A model generated the notes under the pieces. That model had not been told where the DNA came from, did not search any database, and was given only the letters and a program-made list of their open reading frames with translations. A stretch of 10,301 nucleotides of DNA, taken from the NCBI GenBank assembly GCA_020348445.1, contig CP070751.1:1370518-1380818 (forward strand), written 5' to 3'. Source of the stretch: Thermoplasmata archaeon (GTDB lineage Archaea; Thermoplasmatota; Thermoplasmata; GCA-020350865). How positions within the stretch are numbered: the stretch's first letter is position 1; the number at the start of each line of letters is the position of its first letter. A program made the translations under genes and the position numbers. Positions 850-9,863 of the stretch are shown here, piece by piece.

Positions 850-1629
850 ATGGCCTATAGAAACATAATTATAGAGAAAAAAGATGGTGTCGGAACCATT
901 AAAATCAATAGACCCAAGGTGTTGAATGCCTTAAACAAAGACACCGTGGGGGAGTTTTCAAAAGCAGTTGGAGAACTAGAACAAGATAAAAACATAAAAG
1001 TCGCCATATTAACTGGTGAGGGGAAGGCGTTTATCGCTGGGGCTGACATAGGAGAGATGAAAGATATGAGCTCATTAGAGGCCAAAGAATTCGCTGAGAT
1101 AGGACATAATCTGTTAATGAAGATTGAAAACTCTCGAATCCCCTTTATTGCAGCGGTTAACGGATATGCACTTGGTGGTGGATGTGAGGTATTGATGGCA
1201 TGTGACATTTGTATTGCTGGTGTGAGTGCAAAGATTGGTCAACCTGAGATTAACTTGGGGATTCATCCTGGTTTTGGAGGTACACAACGGCTACCAAGAC
1301 TTGTAGGGCGGATGAAGGCGAAGGATCTCCTCCTTACAGGTCGTAGCATTGATGCAAAAGAAGCCTTTCAAATTGGATTGGTAAACAAGGTTGTTGAAGA
1401 TGAAAAACTCATAGATGAGGCTAGGAAACTAGCTAATATGATTGCAGAGAAGTCTTCAGTACAGACCGGTTTCATAAAGTCACTGGTAAATAAAGGTGCT
1501 GACATTGATTTACATTCAGCGTGTTCTTTGGAGATTTCATATTTCTCATCGAGTTTCTCTACAGAGGACCAGAAAGAGGGTATGACAGCTTTTCTTGAAA
1601 AAAGAAAACCCATGTTTAAGGGAAAATAA
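850..1629 (+). CDS. crt: Enoyl-CoA hydratase / 3-hydroxybutyryl-CoA dehydratase (crotonase)
   Basis: Motifs INRPKVLNALN, KAFIAGADIGEM (oxyanion hole), NGYALGGGCE (catalytic Glu), GQPEINLGIHPGFGGTQRLPRLVG (second Glu) and C-terminal EGMTAFLEKRKP. Confidence 0.92.
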   Translation: MAYRNIIIEKKDGVGTIKINRPKVLNALNKDTVGEFSKAVGELEQDKNIKVAILTGEGKAFIAGADIGEMKDMSSLEAKEFAEIGHNLLMKIENSRIPFIAAVNGYALGGGCEVLMACDICIAGVSAKIGQPEINLGIHPGFGGTQRLPRLVGRMKAKDLLLTGRSIDAKEAFQIGLVNKVVEDEKLIDEARKLANMIAEKSSVQTGFIKSLVNKGADIDLHSACSLEISYFSSSFSTEDQKEGMTAFLEKRKPMFKGK

Positions 1630-1641
1630 AAATTTTCTTTT
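1622..1641. terminator. Putative bidirectional oligo-T terminator at the convergent crt/meaB junction
   Basis: Only 10 nt separate the two stops. The + strand reads TTTTCTTTT (1633-1641) after the crt stop, and the - strand reads TTTTTATTTT (1632-1623) after the meaB stop. GAAAAT/ATTTTC forms an inverted repeat (1622-1627/1632-1637). Confidence 0.5.
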
Positions 1642-2581
1642 ACTTCAGAATTTTACCTAGTATTTCATCTGCAGCAGTATACGGATCAACTTCCTTTTTG
1701 CTCATCTGGTCAATAAGTGATTCAACCTTGCCTGTAAACTTTGGCTCATCGAAAATAAAATCCATAAGTCGTTTCCGGATGATTTCAACAAGCTCAGCTT
1801 CATAACGCTTCCTTCGCTGTGCATCAAATCTTTTGGTTTTTTTCAAATATTCTCTATGCTTATCGATTTCATAAATTAGTTCACTAATTCCTTTGCTTTC
1901 TTTAGCAATAGTTGAAAGAACAGGTGTCTTTCTGTCCCTGTCTGTATTTGCAATATCAATATAACTCTCTATCTCAGCAATGGTTTGTTCGACACCCGAT
2001 CGGTCAGCCTTATTTACCACAAATATGTCAGCAATCTCCATAACACCTGCTTTAATTGTTTGAATAGAGTCACCAAGACCTGGAACCAAAACAACAAGTG
2101 TGGTATCAGCGATCTTTATCACATCCACCTCTGCCTGACCTATACCAACAGTTTCAACCATTACAATATCCTTACCAGATGCATCAAGGATCTCTACAAC
2201 ATCATACACAGCACTAGTTAGCCCACCAAGCATACCACGAGTTCCCATACTTCGAATAAAGACACCATCATCAGTGGCAAGCTCCATCATCCTCACTCGA
2301 TCTCCTAGCAAAGCACCACCGCTAAACGGACTCGTGGGATCAATGGCGATTATACCAACTTTTAACCCCTGTTGTCGGTATTCACGAGTAAGCTCATAAA
2401 TCAACGTACTCTTTCCACTCCCCATCACCCCAGTGATACCTATAACATAAGCATTGCCCGTATGAGGATGGATATCTTTCATTGCGCTCATAACATCAGG
2501 ATCATTGTTTTCAGCTAAGGTGATTAAACGAGCAATGGATCGAGCATCACCCTTTAAAACCTTGGCAACAATTTCATTCAT
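1640..2581 (-). CDS. meaB: MeaB/ArgK-family GTPase, G-protein chaperone of B12-dependent acyl-CoA mutase
   Basis: Motifs [10 protein letters not shown]-loop [62 protein letters not shown]. The start overlaps the small-subunit stop (ATGA, 2578-2581), suggesting translational coupling. Confidence 0.92.
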
Positions 2582-2973
2582 CGTTTCACATTCTTCCTGA
2601 TAAACTCAACAATCTCCTCACAATGAGTACCTGGTCCAAAAACACCTGTAACACCCGCTTTTTTCAACTTGGGAACATCCTCCTCTGGGATGATACCGCC
2701 ACCAACAACCAAAACATCCTCAATACCTTTCTTCTTTAAAAGCTGGGTGACATCTAAAAACAATGTCATATGTGCACCAGACAACAAACTCAGACCAATA
2801 ACATCTACATCCTCCTGGACTGCAGATTCTACAATCATTTCAGCTGTCTGATGCAAACCAGTGTATACAACCTCCATACCAGCATCTCGCAGTGCACGAG
2901 CGACGATCTTTGCACCACGGTCATGACCATCAAGTCCAGGTTTTGCCACAAGCACCCTAATCTTCCGTTCCAT
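2578..2973 (-). CDS. Acyl-CoA mutase small subunit, stand-alone cobalamin-binding domain (methylmalonyl-CoA mutase C-terminal / IcmB-like)
   Basis: [12 protein letters not shown] (DxHxxG, base-off/His-on), [17 protein letters not shown] (SxL) and VVGGGIIP (GG). SD AAGGAGG at 2984-2990. Confidence 0.93.
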
Positions 2974-2983
2974 TTCAGCACAT

Positions 2984-2990
2984 CCTCCTT
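2984..2990 (-). promoter_or_regulatory. Shine-Dalgarno site (AAGGAGG) for the mutase small subunit
   Basis: Overlaps the large-subunit TAA and lies 10 nt upstream of ATG 2973. Confidence 0.7.
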
Positions 2991-4665
2991 AATACATAGC
3001 AGGTTCTGTATATTCTCCAAAAACCTCTCTCAAAACATTACAGGTTTCACCTAAGGTAGCATAAGCATGCACACAGTCAAGAATATATGGCATAAGATTC
3101 TCATCACCTTCTGCTGCTTTCCCAAGGCGATCGAGGTTCTTATCAACCTTTGACTGATTTCTTTCCCTCCGCAGTTTCTTTAACCTATTGATTTGACGTT
3201 GTTCGCCTTTCTCATCCATCTCTAAAATCGGGATAGAAAGTGGTTCATCCATCTTATACTTATTTACGCCAACGATTACACGGTTGTTTTCATCAATTTC
3301 TTTCTGATACTTATAAGCACTTTCAGCGATTTCACGCTGGTAAAATCCTTTTTCAATTGCCGGTAACACTCCACCAAGTTTTTCGGCTCTGTCAAAATAT
3401 TTGTAGGTTTCCTCCTCCATTTTATCCGTTAGCCACTCAACATAATATGAACCACCTAATGGGTCAATGGTATTGGTGACTCCGCTTTCCTCAGCAATGA
3501 TCTGCTGCGTTCGTAAAGCGATGCGCGATGCTTTTTCGGAAGGTAAGGCCAACGCTTCATCCATAGAATTCGTGTGTAACGATTGTGTACCACCTAATAT
3601 TGCAGATAGAGCCTGTAGTGTTACACGAGCAATATTAATCTCAGGCTGCTGAGCAGTCAAAGAAACACCAGCAGTTTGGGTATGAAAACGCATAAGTAAG
3701 GAACGGGGTTTCTTAGCACCTAGCTTTTTCAACTCCCTAGCCCAAATGCGACGAGCAGCGCGATACTTTGCGATCTCCTCAAAGAAATCACTATGTGCAT
3801 TAAAAAAGAAACTCAATCTATATGCAAAATCATCAATCTTTAGACCACGCTCCATTGCAGCCTTCACATACTCAAGCCCATCGCCAAGTGTGAACGCTAA
3901 CTCTTGAACCGCTGTAGCACCAGCCTCGCGGATGTGATACCCGCTAATACTAATCGTATTCCAACGAGGAACTTCTTTAAACCCATACTCGAACGTGTCA
4001 ATAATCAAACGCATACTAGGTTCCGGAGGGAAAATAAAAGATTTCTGTGCAATATATTCTTTTAAAATATCGTTTTGAATTGTACCGCCAATCCCGCGTT
4101 TATTGATGCCCCTATTCTCAGCATTCGCAATATACATCGCCCAAATAATTGCTGCAGGGCCATTAATTGTCATGCTGGTAGTAATCTTGTCCACAGGTAT
4201 GCCTCTGAATAAAATCTCCATATCCTTCAAGCTACTAACTGCAACACCACACTTCCCAAACTCACCACGAGAATGAGGATCATCCGTATCATATCCGTAC
4301 AATGTTGGATAATCAAAAGCTACGCTCAAACCTGTTTCACCATGTTCTAACAGATATTTATAACGCTTATTTGTCTCCTCAGCGCCTCCAAAACCAGAAA
4401 ACATACGCATAGTCCACAAACGACCACGATACATCGTCGAATGGATGCCACGGAGAAATGGATATTCTCCAGGGAAACCCAAATCCTTGATGTAATCTAA
4501 ATGAGCAACATCCTCGGGAGTATATAGGTTCTTTATCGTAATCCAAGATAAATTTTCAAATTTTTTTTTCTGTTCGGGATTATCTTTTACCAATTTAGAG
4601 TAGCAGTTTTTTTCCCATAGAGTTCTTTTTTCTTTTACTTGGTTCAACTCTTCTTTATCATTCAT
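2989..4665 (-). CDS. Methylmalonyl-CoA mutase family large (substrate-binding TIM-barrel) subunit with an isobutyryl-CoA mutase (IcmA)-type active site, 558 aa
   Basis: Motifs [68 protein letters not shown] and [10 protein letters not shown]. No C-terminal B12 domain. I moved the start from 4707 to ATG 4665 because GGGAGG (4674-4679) precedes it and the 4707 start would overlap the adenosyltransferase gene. Family confidence is high; substrate assignment is inference. Confidence 0.92.
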
Positions 4666-4681: not shown

Positions 4682-5206
4682 TTAGTAGTCAATACCTTTC
4701 CGGGCAATTACACCATTGTGGTAGGGATGTTTTATCTCAAGCATCTCAGTGACAAGATCTGCCATCTTTATTAACTCAGGATGAGCATACCTCCCTGTTA
4801 AAATTAGTTCAACTTTTTCTGGTTTTTCTTCAACGAGTTTCAGCACATCATCTAGAGATATAAGGTTATAGTCAATGGCAACGTTTATCTCATCAAGGAT
4901 AACAATATCATATTTTCCTTTTTTCACGATCTCCTGGGCATGTACAAAACCTTGCTGCGCTAAATCGATATCAATTTGCTCTGGATTTTCTTTTGATACA
5001 AATTCATCGCGACCATACTGGACAATGGTAAAATTGGTGAGATTTTCTGTCGTATCTAGCTCGCTATACCGTCTTCCTTTCATAAATTGGATCATATACA
5101 CCTTAAGACCTGCACCGGCAGCCCGTATTCCTAATCCAAGTGCAACAGTGGTTTTGCCTTTTCCGGGTCCAGTATATACATGAATATAGCCTTTTTCTAA
5201 TGACAT
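4682..5206 (-). CDS. cobO: Cob(I)yrinic acid a,c-diamide / corrinoid adenosyltransferase, CobA/CobO/BtuR type
   Basis: Motifs [13 protein letters not shown] (CobA-type P-loop), [23 protein letters not shown] and [22 protein letters not shown]. Confidence 0.92.
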
Positions 5207-5233
5207 AATTTCCTTCCTTTAATCGGATAGGTT

Positions 5234-5249
5234 GTTATATTTCTTTCTT
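5234..5249 (-). promoter_or_regulatory. Possible BRE-TATA promoter for the cobO-mutase-meaB operon
   Basis: The - strand reads AAGAAAGA-AATATAAC, with the TATA-like box starting ~35 nt before ATG 5206. The match to consensus is weak. Confidence 0.25.
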
Positions 5250-5279
5250 TTATCTCAATTTTTCTCCTGTGCTACATAT

Positions 5280-5292
5280 AGAAAGCTTTATG
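5280..5292 (+). promoter_or_regulatory. Archaeal-type BRE-TATA promoter (AGAAAGC-TTTATG), probably giving a leaderless acyl-CoA dehydrogenase transcript
   Basis: A purine-rich BRE directly precedes TTTATG (5287-5292), whose first T is 31 nt before ATG 5318. This ATG has no SD, unlike the internal genes. Confidence 0.55.
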
Positions 5293-5317
5293 TTTACTAA
5301 TTTTATTCCCAGCCCCA

Positions 5318-6457
5318 ATGAGATTAGAATTAAATGATCAACAGAAGATGATACAAAAGATGGTAAGAGAGTTCGCTGAAAAAGAAATAGCACCAATAGC
5401 CGCAGAATTAGACAAAAAAGAAGAATACCCTACAAAAATCCTTGAAAAAATGGCCAAACTCGGGCTTCTTGGAAGCATTATACCGACTGAATATGGGGGA
5501 GCGGGCCTTGATACAATCAGCTATGCGGCAATAATTGAAGAAATATCCCGAAAATGTGCATCGACAGGGGTTATTACCTCTGTGCATAACTCTCTTGTTG
5601 CCTCGCCGATAATAAAATATGGCACCGATGAACAGAAAAAGAAATATCTTCCAATTCTTGCAAAAGGAGAGAAAATCGGGGCGTTTGCTGGTACAGAACC
5701 TAATGCTGGTTCTGATCTTGGATCGATGAAAACAACCGCGGTGCTTAAGGGTAACAAATACATCATAAATGGCGATAAAACATTTATCACTAGTGGTCCC
5801 AAGGCTGGTGTTATCATTGTTTTTGCTGTAACTGATAAAAGTGCTGGGGCAAATGGGATTAGTGCTTTTATTGTCGAGAGCGATATGAAGGGGTACAAGG
5901 TTGGTAGTATCTATGAAAAACTAGGTATAAATGCATCTCAGACTTCAGAACTTATTTTCGAAGACATGGAGGTCCCTAGGGAAAACCTTCTAGGCAAGGA
6001 GGGTGAAGGATTCAAAATCGCTTTAAGTACTTTAGATGGTGGAAGAATTGGTATCGCTGCACAGGCTGTTGGTATTGCTCAAGCAGCACTTGATGAGAGT
6101 ATAGAATATTCAAAGCAGAGACAACAGTTTGGAAGACCGATATCTAAATTTCAGGCTATACAATGGATGATAGTTGATATGGCTACCCATATCGAAGGAG
6201 CAAGATATCTAGTCTATAACGCAGCCTATGTAAAAGATAAGGGTGAACGTTTCAGCAAAGAGGCGGCGATGGCCAAACTTTTTGCGTCAGAGACTGCAGT
6301 AGATGCCGTGATAAAGGCAGTGCAAATCCATGGCGGCTACGGATATACAAAGGAGTACACCGTTGAACGTTTGTTCAGAGATGCTAAGATTACGGAGATA
6401 TATGAAGGTACTTCAGAGGTGCAAAGAATGGTAATAGCAGGTAGCCTGCTCAAATAA
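5318..6457 (+). CDS. Acyl-CoA dehydrogenase, short-chain / butyryl-CoA dehydrogenase (Bcd)-like
   Basis: Motifs EYGGAGLD, YGTDEQKKKYLP, TEPNAGSD, NGDKTFITSG, TLDGGRIGIAAQAVGIA, RQQFGRPI, QIHGGYGY and ERLFRDAKITEIYEGTSEVQR (catalytic Glu). Confidence 0.93.
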   Translation: MRLELNDQQKMIQKMVREFAEKEIAPIAAELDKKEEYPTKILEKMAKLGLLGSIIPTEYGGAGLDTISYAAIIEEISRKCASTGVITSVHNSLVASPIIKYGTDEQKKKYLPILAKGEKIGAFAGTEPNAGSDLGSMKTTAVLKGNKYIINGDKTFITSGPKAGVIIVFAVTDKSAGANGISAFIVESDMKGYKVGSIYEKLGINASQTSELIFEDMEVPRENLLGKEGEGFKIALSTLDGGRIGIAAQAVGIAQAALDESIEYSKQRQQFGRPISKFQAIQWMIVDMATHIEGARYLVYNAAYVKDKGERFSKEAAMAKLFASETAVDAVIKAVQIHGGYGYTKEYTVERLFRDAKITEIYEGTSEVQRMVIAGSLLK

Positions 6458-6490: not shown

Positions 6491-8113
6491 ATGGGGGATT
6501 TTAACTACGAAAAAGAGTTTAAAAAGTGGAAATGGGACATCCCTGAAAAGTATAATATTGGAGTTGACATTGTTGACAAGCATGCTGAGAGTAGAAGTAA
6601 AAACAAGGTAGTATTGTATTGGGAGAACGCTGAAGGTTTTGAGAAGAAGTTTACTTTTTGTGAAATGAAGAACCTCACCAATAAATTTGGAAATGCCCTA
6701 AAAAAACTTGGTTTTAAAAAAGGAGATAGATTCCTCCTTAGACTTCCAAATCTTCCAGAGTTTCATGTCTCGTTTCTCGGTGGAGTAAAGATAGGTGCTA
6801 TTCCTATTCCCTCAAGCGTGATGTTCAGGGGACATGAAATAGAGTATAGGATAAACGATAGTGGTTCTAAAGCTGTAATAACAACACCTAGATATGTTGG
6901 AGAAATAGATAAAATCAGGGACAAATGTCCAACATTGAAACACATCATAATCGTCGGAGAGGCATATGGAGATCAGCTTTCATACAGCGAATTGATGAGA
7001 GAATCCTCCTATTATTTGAAGGCTGAACCTACAAATAGAGACGACATGGCGTTTTTTTGTTACACCTCTGGTACAAAAGGTAATCCAAAAGGGGCAGTAC
7101 ATTTGCATCGATGGGTTCCAGGAAATGACCCAAGCGTAATTTTCTGGCAGCAGGCAAAAGAGAACGATTTAATAGCCCATACTGGTGATTTAAACTGGAT
7201 TTTTCCACTTGGAAATGGTTTTCTATACCCATGGCGCTGGGGAGTATCCACGCTTATATATGATGGTAGATTTGACCCAGTGCATTGGTTTAAACTTATT
7301 GAGAAATACGAGGTTACTAATCTTGCTTCACTGCCTACTGCCTATCGCCTATTTCTAACAGTTAAAGATGCTGAGAAGAACTATGATCTTTCATCGTTAA
7401 GGCATTGTATCTCTGCTGGGGAGCCATTAAACCCAGAGGTTATTAAAGAATGGAAACGGAGATTTAATCTCGATGTATATTATGGCATCGGTATGACAGA
7501 GATCATGGTTTATCTCTCGAACTTCAGGGGTATGAAGATTAAACCAGGTTCATGTGGTAAACCCCAACCAGGTCATGTGTGTTCGGTCGTTGATCTTGAA
7601 GGCAAGCCTCAACCAAGAGGTGAATCTGGTATAATTGCAGTGAAACAAAATGATCCTGGCCTGTTTAAAGAGTATTGGAATAAACCTGAGATAACCGCTA
7701 AGAGTTTCAAAAATGGTTGGTTCTTAACCGGTGATGTTCTTTATCAAGATGAGGATGGTTATTATTGGTTTAGCGGCCGAGACGATGATCTCATAATGTC
7801 GAACGGATATCGTATCTCGTCTTTTGAGGTTGAATCAGCGATTATTTCACATCCCGAGGTATTGGATTCAGCAGTGGTGACAAGTCCTGACAAAATGCTT
7901 GGAGTGGTTGTTAAGGCTTATGTTGTTCTTCACAATAACAGTAAAGCATCTGATGAGTTAGTGGAGGATATTCAGGAGCATACGAAAAATATTGCTGCTC
8001 CATATAGGTATCCTGTAGAGATAGAATTTGTGAAAGAACTTCCTAAGACTCAAAGTGGGAAGATAAAAATAAAGGAACTGAGAGGGTTAGAGAAGAAAAA
8101 GAAAGAAGTGTAA
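6491..8113 (+). CDS. AMP-forming acyl-CoA synthetase/ligase (ANL superfamily) with benzoate-CoA-ligase-like motifs; substrate unknown
   Basis: A3 YTSGTKGNPKG, SAGEPL, A5 GIGMTE, A7 TGD, A8 GRDDDLIMSNGYRI..FEVES and A10 LPKTQSGKI. Confidence 0.88.
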   Translation: MGDFNYEKEFKKWKWDIPEKYNIGVDIVDKHAESRSKNKVVLYWENAEGFEKKFTFCEMKNLTNKFGNALKKLGFKKGDRFLLRLPNLPEFHVSFLGGVKIGAIPIPSSVMFRGHEIEYRINDSGSKAVITTPRYVGEIDKIRDKCPTLKHIIIVGEAYGDQLSYSELMRESSYYLKAEPTNRDDMAFFCYTSGTKGNPKGAVHLHRWVPGNDPSVIFWQQAKENDLIAHTGDLNWIFPLGNGFLYPWRWGVSTLIYDGRFDPVHWFKLIEKYEVTNLASLPTAYRLFLTVKDAEKNYDLSSLRHCISAGEPLNPEVIKEWKRRFNLDVYYGIGMTEIMVYLSNFRGMKIKPGSCGKPQPGHVCSVVDLEGKPQPRGESGIIAVKQNDPGLFKEYWNKPEITAKSFKNGWFLTGDVLYQDEDGYYWFSGRDDDLIMSNGYRISSFEVESAIISHPEVLDSAVVTSPDKMLGVVVKAYVVLHNNSKASDELVEDIQEHTKNIAAPYRYPVEIEFVKELPKTQSGKIKIKELRGLEKKKKEV

Positions 8114-8135: not shown

Positions 8136-8903
8136 ATGAATATTGTTGTTTGTGCGAAACAGGTTGTTGATGTATCCGAGATGAAGGTTGATTCATCTAC
8201 AAAAAAGCCGATTTTGCAAGGTATACCGCAGAAGATTAGTGATATTGATAAGAATGCTATAGAGGAAGCAATTAAGATCAAGGAAAAACATGATGGTAAG
8301 ATAACGGTGGTAACGGTTGGTCCAAATGATGCTAAGGAACGTATTAAGGAATTGTTGGCGATGGGTGCTGACGAGGGCGTTTTGATTCCTTATTCCGAAA
8401 AGTACGATTATCATGTAGTTTCTAGTCTCTTGGCAGGAGCTATAAAGAAGATTGGTGAATATGATATTGTTTTATGTGGTGAGGCATCGATTGATTTGTT
8501 TTCGGGACAAATTGGACCAAGGTTGGCTGGTTTATTGAATATTCCACAGATTACGTATGCCCAGAGCGTTAATGCTGAAGGGGTTAAGGTTGTCGCTGAG
8601 CGAAATATGGGTGATAAGATGGTGACAACCGAGTCGTCTTATCCTGTTCTTATTACTGTGACTAAAGAAATTAATGAGCCCCGTCTCCCGAGTCTTATGC
8701 AGATTCTCGGGGCAGCTAATAAACCAATTAATGAATGGAGTGCAAATTCACTCGTACAGGATAAATTAGAGCCTGTGATTGAGATTGTTGAGTTAAAAGG
8801 AGTCCCTATGGAGCGGAAGAACATTGTGTATCAGGATGATTTGGACGAGTCGATTGAGAAATTGGTTGATAGTCTTGCTAAGGAAGGAGTATTGGGGGGA
8901 TAG
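8136..8903 (+). CDS. etfB: Electron transfer flavoprotein beta subunit (FixA-like)
   Basis: Motifs MNIVVCAKQV, DKNAIEEAIKIKE, LLAMGADEG, LCGEASID..GQIGPRLAG, PQIT and NEPRLPS. SD-like AGGGGGT at 8119-8125. Confidence 0.92.
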   Translation: MNIVVCAKQVVDVSEMKVDSSTKKPILQGIPQKISDIDKNAIEEAIKIKEKHDGKITVVTVGPNDAKERIKELLAMGADEGVLIPYSEKYDYHVVSSLLAGAIKKIGEYDIVLCGEASIDLFSGQIGPRLAGLLNIPQITYAQSVNAEGVKVVAERNMGDKMVTTESSYPVLITVTKEINEPRLPSLMQILGAANKPINEWSANSLVQDKLEPVIEIVELKGVPMERKNIVYQDDLDESIEKLVDSLAKEGVLGG

Positions 8904-8906
8904 AAT

Positions 8907-9863
8907 ATGGTGCTTGTTTTTTCTGATGATGATAAACTTTGTTTGGAGATTCTATCTAAAGGAAATGAGCTAGCAAAGGAGTTGAGTAAAAAGCTCACTG
9001 CAGTAATAATTGGAAAGAGTGATGATGCGCTGGCAAGGAAATACATAGCCCATGGTGCTGATACGGTAGTAGTTGCAGAGACCGATCTAGATTCATTTAA
9101 GGCGGAGGAGTACACTGGGATTTTGGAGAATATCCTGAAAGAGACAAAACCTGAGATTATATTAATTGGTTCCAATAAGAATGGCAAAGAGCTTGCTCCT
9201 CGGCTTGCATCTAAGCTTGGAGCTGGTTGTGTGACTGATTGCACAAATCTTTATGTAAAGAATAAAAAGTTGACTGCTGAACGTATAGTGTATAGTGGGA
9301 ATGCTGTTGCAATAGAACAGTTTACCTCGAGACCAAATATCGTTACCATTCCAAGGAAGGTTTTTGAACCATTGCCAAAGAATGAGAAACACAGTGGAAA
9401 TATAGTTAAGAAGAAAGTGGAAGTGAAGAAAACAGCTTCTAAAGTGCTGAAGGTTCAAGAGATGCAGACTGGTGATGTCAACGTTGAGGATGCAGAAATC
9501 ATTGTCTCATGTGGCCGTGGGTTTAAGAACAAAGATGATATCAAATTAATTAATGAGTTAGCCGAGGTTTTAAAGGGAAGGACTGTTGGGTGTAGTCGAC
9601 CAATTGCTGCTGATTTGAAGTGGCTATCCGAGGATCATTGGATTGGCTTGTCTGGTCATAAGGTAAAGCCTAGGTTGTATATTGCGGTTGGTATCAGTGG
9701 TCAGATTCAACACATCGCGGGTATGCGGGATTCAGGTATCATTGTTGCGATTAACAAGGATCCTGAAGCGCTAATTTTTAAGTCTGCTGACTATGGAATC
9801 GTTGGTGATTTGTATCAGGTTGTTCCAAAATTGACAAACGCGGTTAAAGAGAAAATGGGTTAA
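8907..9863 (+). CDS. etfA: Electron transfer flavoprotein alpha subunit (FixB-like)
   Basis: Motifs AHGAD, ELAPRLA, AEIIVSCGRG, VGCSRP, KPRLYIAVGISGQIQHIAGM and IIVAINKDPEALIFKSADYGIVGDL. SD-like GGGGGGA at 8894-8900. Confidence 0.93.
   Translation: MVLVFSDDDKLCLEILSKGNELAKELSKKLTAVIIGKSDDALARKYIAHGADTVVVAETDLDSFKAEEYTGILENILKETKPEIILIGSNKNGKELAPRLASKLGAGCVTDCTNLYVKNKKLTAERIVYSGNAVAIEQFTSRPNIVTIPRKVFEPLPKNEKHSGNIVKKKVEVKKTASKVLKVQEMQTGDVNVEDAEIIVSCGRGFKNKDDIKLINELAEVLKGRTVGCSRPIAADLKWLSEDHWIGLSGHKVKPRLYIAVGISGQIQHIAGMRDSGIIVAINKDPEALIFKSADYGIVGDLYQVVPKLTNAVKEKMG

Follow-up and report, generated by a model that had tools for sequence, protein, structure and literature searches.

Among described enzymes, the closest counterparts of the gene analysed here are the two-subunit, adenosylcobalamin (AdoCbl)-dependent isobutyryl-CoA mutases (ICM; EC 5.4.99.13). 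In the IcmA/IcmB enzyme of Streptomyces cinnamonensis, the large and small subunits are separate proteins, the small subunit bears a DxHxxG motif, and the large subunit reportedly has Phe and Gln at the positions where methylmalonyl-CoA mutase (MCM) has Tyr89 and Arg207. The gene in question, at positions 2989-4665 on the minus strand of a 10,301-nucleotide stretch of DNA from an uncultured Thermoplasmatota archaeon (GenBank assembly GCA_020348445.1, contig CP070751.1, positions 1,370,518 to 1,380,818; this whole stretch is called the window below), belongs to a system that is alike in these respects, and that differs in its archaeal host and in that a single operon encodes the large subunit, the small subunit, a MeaB-type chaperone and an adenosyltransferase. 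The same four-gene module, as likened by gene content, has been described from a bacterial syntroph, Syntrophothermus lipocalidus TGB-C1, in which the ICM cluster Slip_0757-0760 comprises the adenosyltransferase, the large subunit, the small subunit and MeaB (PMC5017805). That cluster was tied to the isomerisation of isobutyrate to butyrate ahead of beta-oxidation (PMC5017805); in the window, beta-oxidation genes and a ligase gene adjoin the module.

Other relatives resemble the window in part. The fused mutase IcmF (C. metallidurans 4XC6; NF045497) has the same Phe/Ala/Gln pocket residues, as checked on a Streptomyces IcmF, and the same set of B12, G-protein and substrate domains, but as one very divergent polypeptide of about 1080 aa, whereas the window has three genes. 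The 2-hydroxyisobutyryl-CoA mutase HcmAB (Aquincola tertiaricarbonis 4R3U; M. petroleiphilum PM1) is alike in its split architecture, its MeaB, the Gln at the Arg207 position and its membership of the non-MCM clade; HcmA differs in its Ile90/Asp117, in having a 2-HIBA-CoA ligase of the HCL type as neighbour and in being only 46.7% identical to the window protein. Split MCMs, such as a paralogue in the same assembly (P0002) and the enzyme of the Ilyobacter polytropus operon, are alike in length, domain structure and identity (57-61%), but they have Tyr/Arg, and their genes accompany one for methylmalonyl-CoA epimerase, joined in Ilyobacter by a decarboxylase gene.

The mislabelling of ICM-type enzymes as MCM has been complained of in a passage of PMC7764203, citing Cracan et al. 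2010. For the Thermoplasmatales, an 'isobutyryl-CoA mutase subunit B' has been annotated, and detected in the proteome, in the cultured archaeon Cuniculiplasma divulgatum (PMC7285479), while our literature search found no paper linking ICM to Thermoprofundales/MBG-D. Here we present evidence that the gene at 2989-4665 probably encodes the large subunit of a two-subunit AdoCbl-dependent ICM of the IcmA/IcmB type, predicted from its sequence to interconvert isobutyryl-CoA and n-butyryl-CoA. A first-pass annotation, made from the letters of the window, had proposed a mutase of this kind, and the pocket residues, the phylogenetic tree and the gene context all support that proposal. As such, the present work concerns a known and widespread enzyme type, present in hundreds of species, and is an annotation correction; it describes no new enzyme type, mechanism or system.

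Substrate pocket and family membership

Translation of the gene gives a protein of 558 aa with no internal stop. The ATG at 4665 is the sensible start, because a GGGAGG sits 8 nt upstream of it, the gap to cobA is then 16 nt, and the resulting length is common to more than 100 homologues; an alternative TTG at 4707 would overlap cobA. The protein matches PF01642 (MM_CoA_mutase) end to end (742.7 bits, profile positions 4-512 of 512) and TIGR00641 with 788.8 bits, and it keeps the catalytic residues of the AdoCbl mutases, namely Gln197 and Tyr243/His244 in MCM numbering. Together with its PF02310 partner, it belongs to the AdoCbl-dependent acyl-CoA mutase family. A script placed Phe89, Ala116 and Gln207 (Table 1), as well as Gln197 (codon 4077-4075), Tyr243 (3939-3937) and His244 (3936-3934). 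These are the residues and motifs that the first-pass annotation had named, and the codons that it had given for Phe89 and Gln207 agree exactly.

In MCM, Tyr89 and Arg207 hold the carboxylate of the substrate. Residue equivalence was established by a phmmer search of the large subunit against all PDB chains, in which F89 falls on Tyr89 and Q207 on Arg207 of P. shermanii MCM MutB (1REQ_A), with the segments at both sites (rpwtirqYagfs and fmvRntyiypp) aligned to the window protein ungapped. The equivalence on which the earlier proposal had been staked therefore holds, and the carboxylate-binding pair of MCM is absent from the window protein, which has Phe and Gln instead. In the three pocket columns, HcmA (4R3U_A) has Ile90, Asp117 and Gln208; its Ile90 and Asp117 are likewise absent from the window protein, which has Phe89 and Ala116, the latter as in MCM and IcmF. 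A 1261-aa Streptomyces open reading frame, identified as IcmF by its NCBIfam equivalog (1917.6 bits against a cut-off of 1500), has Phe/Ala/Gln at the aligned positions, and this is exactly the triad of the window protein.

Further named references were drawn from public plasmid records. Ile/Asp/Gln was read in M. petroleiphilum HcmA, Xaut_5021 and the Mycobacterium ELW1 homologue, and Tyr/Ala/Arg in the enzymes of Ilyobacter and Acetoanaerobium, in three Streptomyces plasmid enzymes, in one haloarchaeal enzyme and in Rhizobium ScpA. Xaut_5043, which we take to be the characterised pivalyl-CoA mutase, reads Leu/Leu/Asn (WTQRQLIGLG, FIANHQF), with Gln at the Tyr243 position, and the window protein differs from it. 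The residues that the first-pass annotation had cited for IcmF (Phe/Gln), HcmA (Ile90/Asp117) and pivalyl-CoA mutase (Leu/Asn) were all recovered in this way, the last with the identity of Xaut_5043 as assumed here. Across about 280 family members, a Phe is always paired with Gln and a Tyr with Arg, while Ile always comes together with both Asp and Gln, and because no mixed types were seen among them, the Phe/Gln pairing is not chance.

The Streptomyces plasmid homologues that we inspected were Tyr/Arg, a 2.35-Mb Streptomyces record held one copy of Tyr/Arg length and an IcmF, and scans of genome contigs with a codon-biased WTMRQFAGFG DNA pattern and with a Gemmatimonas Phe/Gln protein as seed found no stand-alone Streptomyces Phe/Gln gene. 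A search for Kyrpidia RcmA seeded with M. petroleiphilum HCL returned proteobacterial loci only.

The labels in the databases invite the reading that the protein is a genuine MCM with unusual pocket residues. Close homologues are indeed named 'methylmalonyl-CoA mutase', 'methylmalonyl-CoA mutase family protein' or 'N-terminal domain/subunit' by their sources, just as the first-pass annotation had foreseen for automated pipelines, and the identity to split Tyr/Arg MCMs given above lends the label some colour. Both carboxylate-binding residues are, however, replaced, and the protein scores 647.3 bits against the MCM equivalog NF006944, under its cut-off of 876, which is weak evidence by itself since NF006944 models fused MCM and split MCMs also fall under the cut-off (P0002, 700.3 bits). 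Moreover, searches with NCBIfam and Pfam found no gene for methylmalonyl-CoA epimerase or a carboxylase/carboxyltransferase on the window contig, in agreement with the first-pass annotation; in the bin, an epimerase gene follows a separate, Tyr/Arg paralogue instead, and in five Chloroflexota a Tyr/Arg and a Phe/Gln large subunit stand on the same contig. Given these points, we find a genuine MCM scarcely credible. The protein is also no fused IcmF, with 359.8 bits against the IcmF equivalog NF045497 (cut-off 1500) and its functions spread over three separate genes.

Phylogenetic position

In a careful maximum-likelihood tree (IQ-TREE; 55 sequences, with the very long branches of IcmF and pivalyl-CoA mutase left out and the root placed on fused ScpA), the Tyr/Arg proteins form a basal grade, and all Phe/Gln and Ile/Asp proteins form one clade (support 90/99); the three signature labels need two changes on this tree, the minimum possible. 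The window protein (P0001) groups with a second Phe/Gln paralogue of the assembly (P0003) and with homologues from L017, L018 and L045 in a Thermoplasmatota clade (100/97), which in turn falls within a less well supported group (85/84) composed mostly of Chloroflexota. The HcmA-type proteins with Ile/Asp/Gln are nested in the Phe/Gln clade as sister to haloarchaeal Phe/Gln proteins of Natrialba sp. (L122) and Halorientalis brevis (L167; 93/98), and this nesting suggests that the hydroxyisobutyryl-CoA mutases arose from an ICM-type ancestor. Several origins of the Phe/Gln signature had been considered from a quick maximum-likelihood tree with haloarchaeal Phe/Gln proteins among the Tyr/Arg MCMs; this idea was withdrawn, as the careful tree gives it no support.

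Conservation and gene context across genomes

A survey of 185,579 species genomes gave at least 598 matching stretches, and in the best 80 of these, in which the large-subunit residues were read, the three pocket positions are Phe/Ala/Gln in 80 out of 80. These best matches belong to Thermoplasmatota, Bathyarchaeota, Chloroflexota, Acidobacteriota, Actinomycetota, Bacillota, Thermus and further groups, and haloarchaea have Phe/Gln mutase genes as well; the paralogues that the first-pass annotation had expected in other archaea thus exist in Bathyarchaeota, haloarchaea and other Thermoplasmatota. Among database proteins, the 119 most similar ones (82-86% identity) are likewise all Phe/Ala/Gln; their sources are sediment metagenomes and bins that carry the name Thermoplasmata or Thermoplasmatales archaeon, SCGC AB-539-N05 among them.

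The pocket signature tracks gene context: Phe/Ala/Gln goes with genes of C4 beta-oxidation, Ile/Asp/Gln with HCL and Tyr/Ala/Arg with the epimerase. In Ilyobacter and Acetoanaerobium, both Tyr/Arg, the epimerase gene lies within the mutase operon, and in five Chloroflexota contigs that also hold a Phe/Gln copy, the Tyr/Arg copy stands directly before the epimerase gene. The HCL-linked proteobacterial loci served as a control for the Ile/Asp signature: large subunits adjacent to HCL have Ile/Asp in 73 of 73 cases, with Gln read in 72 and unread in one.

This control bears on the possibility that the large subunit belongs to a 3-hydroxybutyryl-CoA/2-hydroxyisobutyryl-CoA mutase, the product of which the adjacent Hbd would take to acetoacetyl-CoA. 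HcmA (4R3U) scores highest among solved structures, at 554.7 bits (human MCM reaches 499.6), its clade is nested within the Phe/Gln clade, and the window cluster holds both hbd and a CoA ligase gene. Yet the window protein has Phe/Ala where every HCL-linked mutase has Ile/Asp, its neighbouring ligase does not resemble HCL, the ligase that goes with Hcm/Rcm mutases (E 0.28 against the M. petroleiphilum enzyme), and Bcd, EtfBA and crotonase would be superfluous for such a route. Kyrpidia tusciae RcmA, the (R)-specific mutase of Weichler et al. 2015, is reported to have Val at the HcmA Asp117 position, where the window protein has Ala. Taken together, we consider a hydroxyacyl-CoA mutase very unlikely, and an ICM remains the preferred assignment.

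The cluster is kept as a whole, and in the same order, on the 28-kb contig L017 (uncultured archaeon LFW-68_2), where the large subunit is 79% identical. Compared with the window, L017 has in addition a thiolase gene adjoining hbd and an HpaB/AbfD-family gene after the gene for a DUF6125 protein, the latter being located after etfA in both (L017:777-2768 region). Because the HpaB-family gene comes after DUF6125 in L017, the C4 acyl-CoA cluster may reach beyond the window contig; the HpaB family includes 4-hydroxybutyryl-CoA dehydratase. The L017 large-subunit gene (L017:7914-9677), the closest homologue in the genome collection, has an in-frame TAA near L017:9345 that ends the open reading frame at 476 aa, with similarity running past it to the normal end; either the gene is a pseudogene or the assembly is wrong here.

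In L021, L030, L035, L036 and L039, all from Chloroflexota, a Tyr/Arg large subunit, the epimerase and then a Phe/Gln large subunit stand in tandem. A single small-subunit gene is present in L021, L036 and L039, and MeaB in L021 and L036; in tandems of the L021/L036 type, a single B12 subunit and a single chaperone appear to serve two catalytic subunits that differ in specificity. Epimerase-like genes beside Phe/Gln genes in Chloroflexota had been entertained as counter-evidence to the signature and were rejected, since each of them comes after a Tyr/Arg large subunit that the contig carries in addition to the Phe/Gln one.

Operon and neighbouring genes

The window holds three transcription units (Table 1): hbd-crt on the plus strand, cobA-large-small-meaB on the minus strand, and dehydrogenase-ligase-etfB-etfA-DUF6125 on the plus strand. 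The gaps within the mutase operon are 16, 15 and -4 nt, the last reflecting a 4-nt overlap of the meaB start with the small-subunit stop. The small subunit carries DGHDRG, an instance of the DxHxxG motif for His-on B12 binding, and MeaB, CobA and Hbd each clear their equivalog cut-offs. An Rfam search of the window found no RNA family, cobalamin riboswitch included.

The best NCBIfam match of the dehydrogenase is AcrC (536 bits, under the cut-off of that family). For the acyl-CoA synthetase, the top PDB matches are 9g79 and 3etc and the top family match is MbcS, which we take to be a ligase for branched short-chain acids (methylbutyrate/isobutyrate). The match of Hbd to NF004474 starts at profile position 14, and the contig edge at this point is marked by an N spacer.

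Table 1. Coordinates of the mutase gene, its pocket codons and the surrounding features of the window
Feature	Position	Strand	Basis
Acyl-CoA mutase large (substrate-binding) subunit, probable isobutyryl-CoA-mutase type	2989..4665	-	PF01642, TIGR00641, pocket residues
Phe89 codon (MCM Tyr89 position)	4399..4401	-	residue script and alignment
Ala116 codon (HcmA Asp117 position)	4318..4320	-	residue script and alignment
Gln207 codon (MCM Arg207 position)	4045..4047	-	residue script and alignment
CobA/BtuR-type ATP:cob(I)alamin adenosyltransferase, first in mutase operon	4682..5206	-	TIGR00708 175.8 bits (cut-off 167.75), PF02572
Mutase small subunit, 131 aa, B12-binding domain	2578..2973	-	TIGR00640 178.5 bits (cut-off 57.45), PF02310
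MeaB-type G-protein chaperone	1640..2581	-	TIGR00750 341.3 bits (cut-off 240.75), PF03308
AT-rich divergent intergenic region between cobA and dehydrogenase, presumed promoters	5207..5317	none	sequence reading
Butyryl-CoA-dehydrogenase-like (Bcd-like) acyl-CoA dehydrogenase	5318..6457	+	Pfam Acyl-CoA_dh N, M and C domains
Short/medium-chain acyl-CoA synthetase, MbcS-like, not of HCL type	6491..8113	+	NF047394 (MbcS) 497.9 bits, under cut-off
Electron transfer flavoprotein beta subunit (etfB)	8136..8903	+	PF01012
Electron transfer flavoprotein alpha subunit (etfA)	8907..9863	+	PF01012, PF00766
Crotonase, short-chain enoyl-CoA hydratase (crt)	850..1629	+	PF00378 254 bits, NF004475 340.5 bits
3-Hydroxybutyryl-CoA dehydrogenase (hbd), 5' end cut by contig end	2..838	+	NF004474 434.2 bits (cut-off 408)
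DUF6125 protein, 3' end cut by contig end	9926..10300	+	PF19620

Paralogues and structure of the bin

The assembly holds three complete large-subunit genes. Besides the window gene, these are P0002, which is Tyr/Ala/Arg and has a methylmalonyl-CoA epimerase gene (TIGR03081, 152 bits) directly after its stop, and P0003, which is Phe/Ala/Gln and whose bare operon consists of small subunit, MeaB and large subunit, in this order. The identity of P0001 is 70% with P0003 and 61% with P0002. The four motif segments around the pocket are identical in P0001 and P0003, except for a Y/F exchange just after GLSVAFD and an F/Y exchange at 210.

That the three genes share one genome rests on binning. The 5.16-Mb 'single contig' of the assembly is a chain of 354 contigs, ordered by decreasing length and separated by 100-N spacers; the window corresponds exactly to one of these in full, flanked by N runs at 1370418-1370517 and 1380819-1380918 of the joined sequence (G000:C1). 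The bin, with 81.7% completeness and 3.8% contamination, exceeds its congeners in size (5.16 Mb against 2.3-3.7 Mb). Genomes of the same genus (G001-G004) hold orthologues of P0003 at 86-88% identity, yet only matches of about 70% to P0001, and the window contig may therefore be either a lineage-specific (lateral) acquisition or a contig binned from a related population. The functional argument is independent of the bin, because the five Chloroflexota contigs carry the Tyr/Arg gene, the epimerase and the Phe/Gln gene on one piece of DNA.

The flanking loci L227 and L228 were dropped as neighbours of the window, both being located across 100-N spacers on other contigs. A peptide-maturase cassette and a TPR protein beyond the window ends are likewise on other contigs and have no physical linkage to it. 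Elsewhere in the bin, a third small-subunit gene (136 aa; G000:C1:3075839-3077670, L229:5840-7670) stands beside a thiolase-like gene; after this small-subunit gene a fourth large-subunit gene begins, but the contig ends some 40 codons into it.

Substrate range and proposed reaction

Several observations weigh against a straightforward assignment as ICM. Membership of the clade alone leaves the substrate unfixed, because HcmA-type enzymes nest inside the Phe/Gln clade, and IcmF, whose branch is very long (2.6 in the quick tree), does not anchor the clade. Genes of beta-oxidation are found at a minority of Phe/Gln loci only: among 81 loci scanned (80 Phe/Gln, one Tyr/Arg), bcd was nearby in 19, crt in 23 and hbd in 12. 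In addition, the window contig holds no thiolase gene. Finally, IcmF, which has the same Phe/Gln pair, also rearranges isovaleryl- and pivalyl-CoA (PMC10481361), and side activities of the window enzyme are thus possible.

The activities of IcmF raise the question of whether the main substrates might be C5 acyl-CoAs (valeryl-/2-methylbutyryl- or isovaleryl-/pivalyl-CoA), with C4 compounds converted as a side activity. Such a preference would suit the MbcS-like ligase and the presence of two Phe/Ala/Gln paralogues in the bin at 70% identity. On the other hand, the candidate pivalyl-CoA mutase Xaut_5043, with its Leu/Leu/Asn and its Gln in place of Tyr243, is unlike the window protein, the pocket segments of P0001 and P0003 are nearly identical, and the neighbours Bcd, Crt and Hbd are the classic C4 set. 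We consider a C5 enzyme very unlikely on this evidence. There is a small chance that the two Thermoplasmatota Phe/Ala/Gln lineages differ in substrate, one acting on C5 compounds (such as 2-methylbutyryl-/valeryl-CoA derived from isoleucine or valerate) and the other on C4 compounds, the window type being linked to ligase, Bcd, Etf, Crt and Hbd genes and the P0003 type confined to its bare operon.

For the preferred assignment as an ICM, we propose the following sequence of events. The CobA-type adenosyltransferase, as judged from its family, would make AdoCbl, and the MeaB GTPase would gate the loading of AdoCbl onto the small subunit, which would hold it base-off/His-on through the His of DGHDRG, while the acyl-CoA would be bound by the large subunit. 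Homolysis of the Co-C bond would yield a 5'-deoxyadenosyl radical that abstracts a hydrogen from the substrate, and the thioester carbonyl would then move by a 1,2-shift. Where Tyr89 and Arg207 of MCM bind a carboxylate, Phe89 and Gln207 would leave a neutral pocket that fits a methyl group.

The gene context suggests that isobutyryl-CoA may be supplied by the ligase, through activation of isobutyrate, or by valine catabolism. The mutase would straighten isobutyryl-CoA to butyryl-CoA, which Bcd/EtfAB, crotonase and Hbd could carry through crotonyl-CoA and 3-hydroxybutyryl-CoA to acetoacetyl-CoA, and a thiolase, such as the one encoded next to hbd in L017, would complete the route to acetyl-CoA. 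The direction given here is the predicted one, and the route would in principle be reversible.

Implications

The label 'methylmalonyl-CoA mutase (family protein)' should be replaced by isobutyryl-CoA mutase large subunit, and this fix applies to a family that is common in marine-sediment Thermoplasmatota, with more than 100 clusters (90% clustering) at 82-86% identity to the window protein. If the improbable division between a C4 and a C5 lineage were true, mutase specificity would be hidden behind the ICM triad, and benthic protein-degrading archaea would have a B12 route for straightening branched amino-acid skeletons. Under the assignment preferred here, the metabolic prediction is that these archaea could turn isobutyrate, or isobutyryl-CoA derived from valine, into butyryl-CoA and then into acetyl-CoA, a prediction relevant to models of how protein and volatile fatty acids are turned over in sediments.

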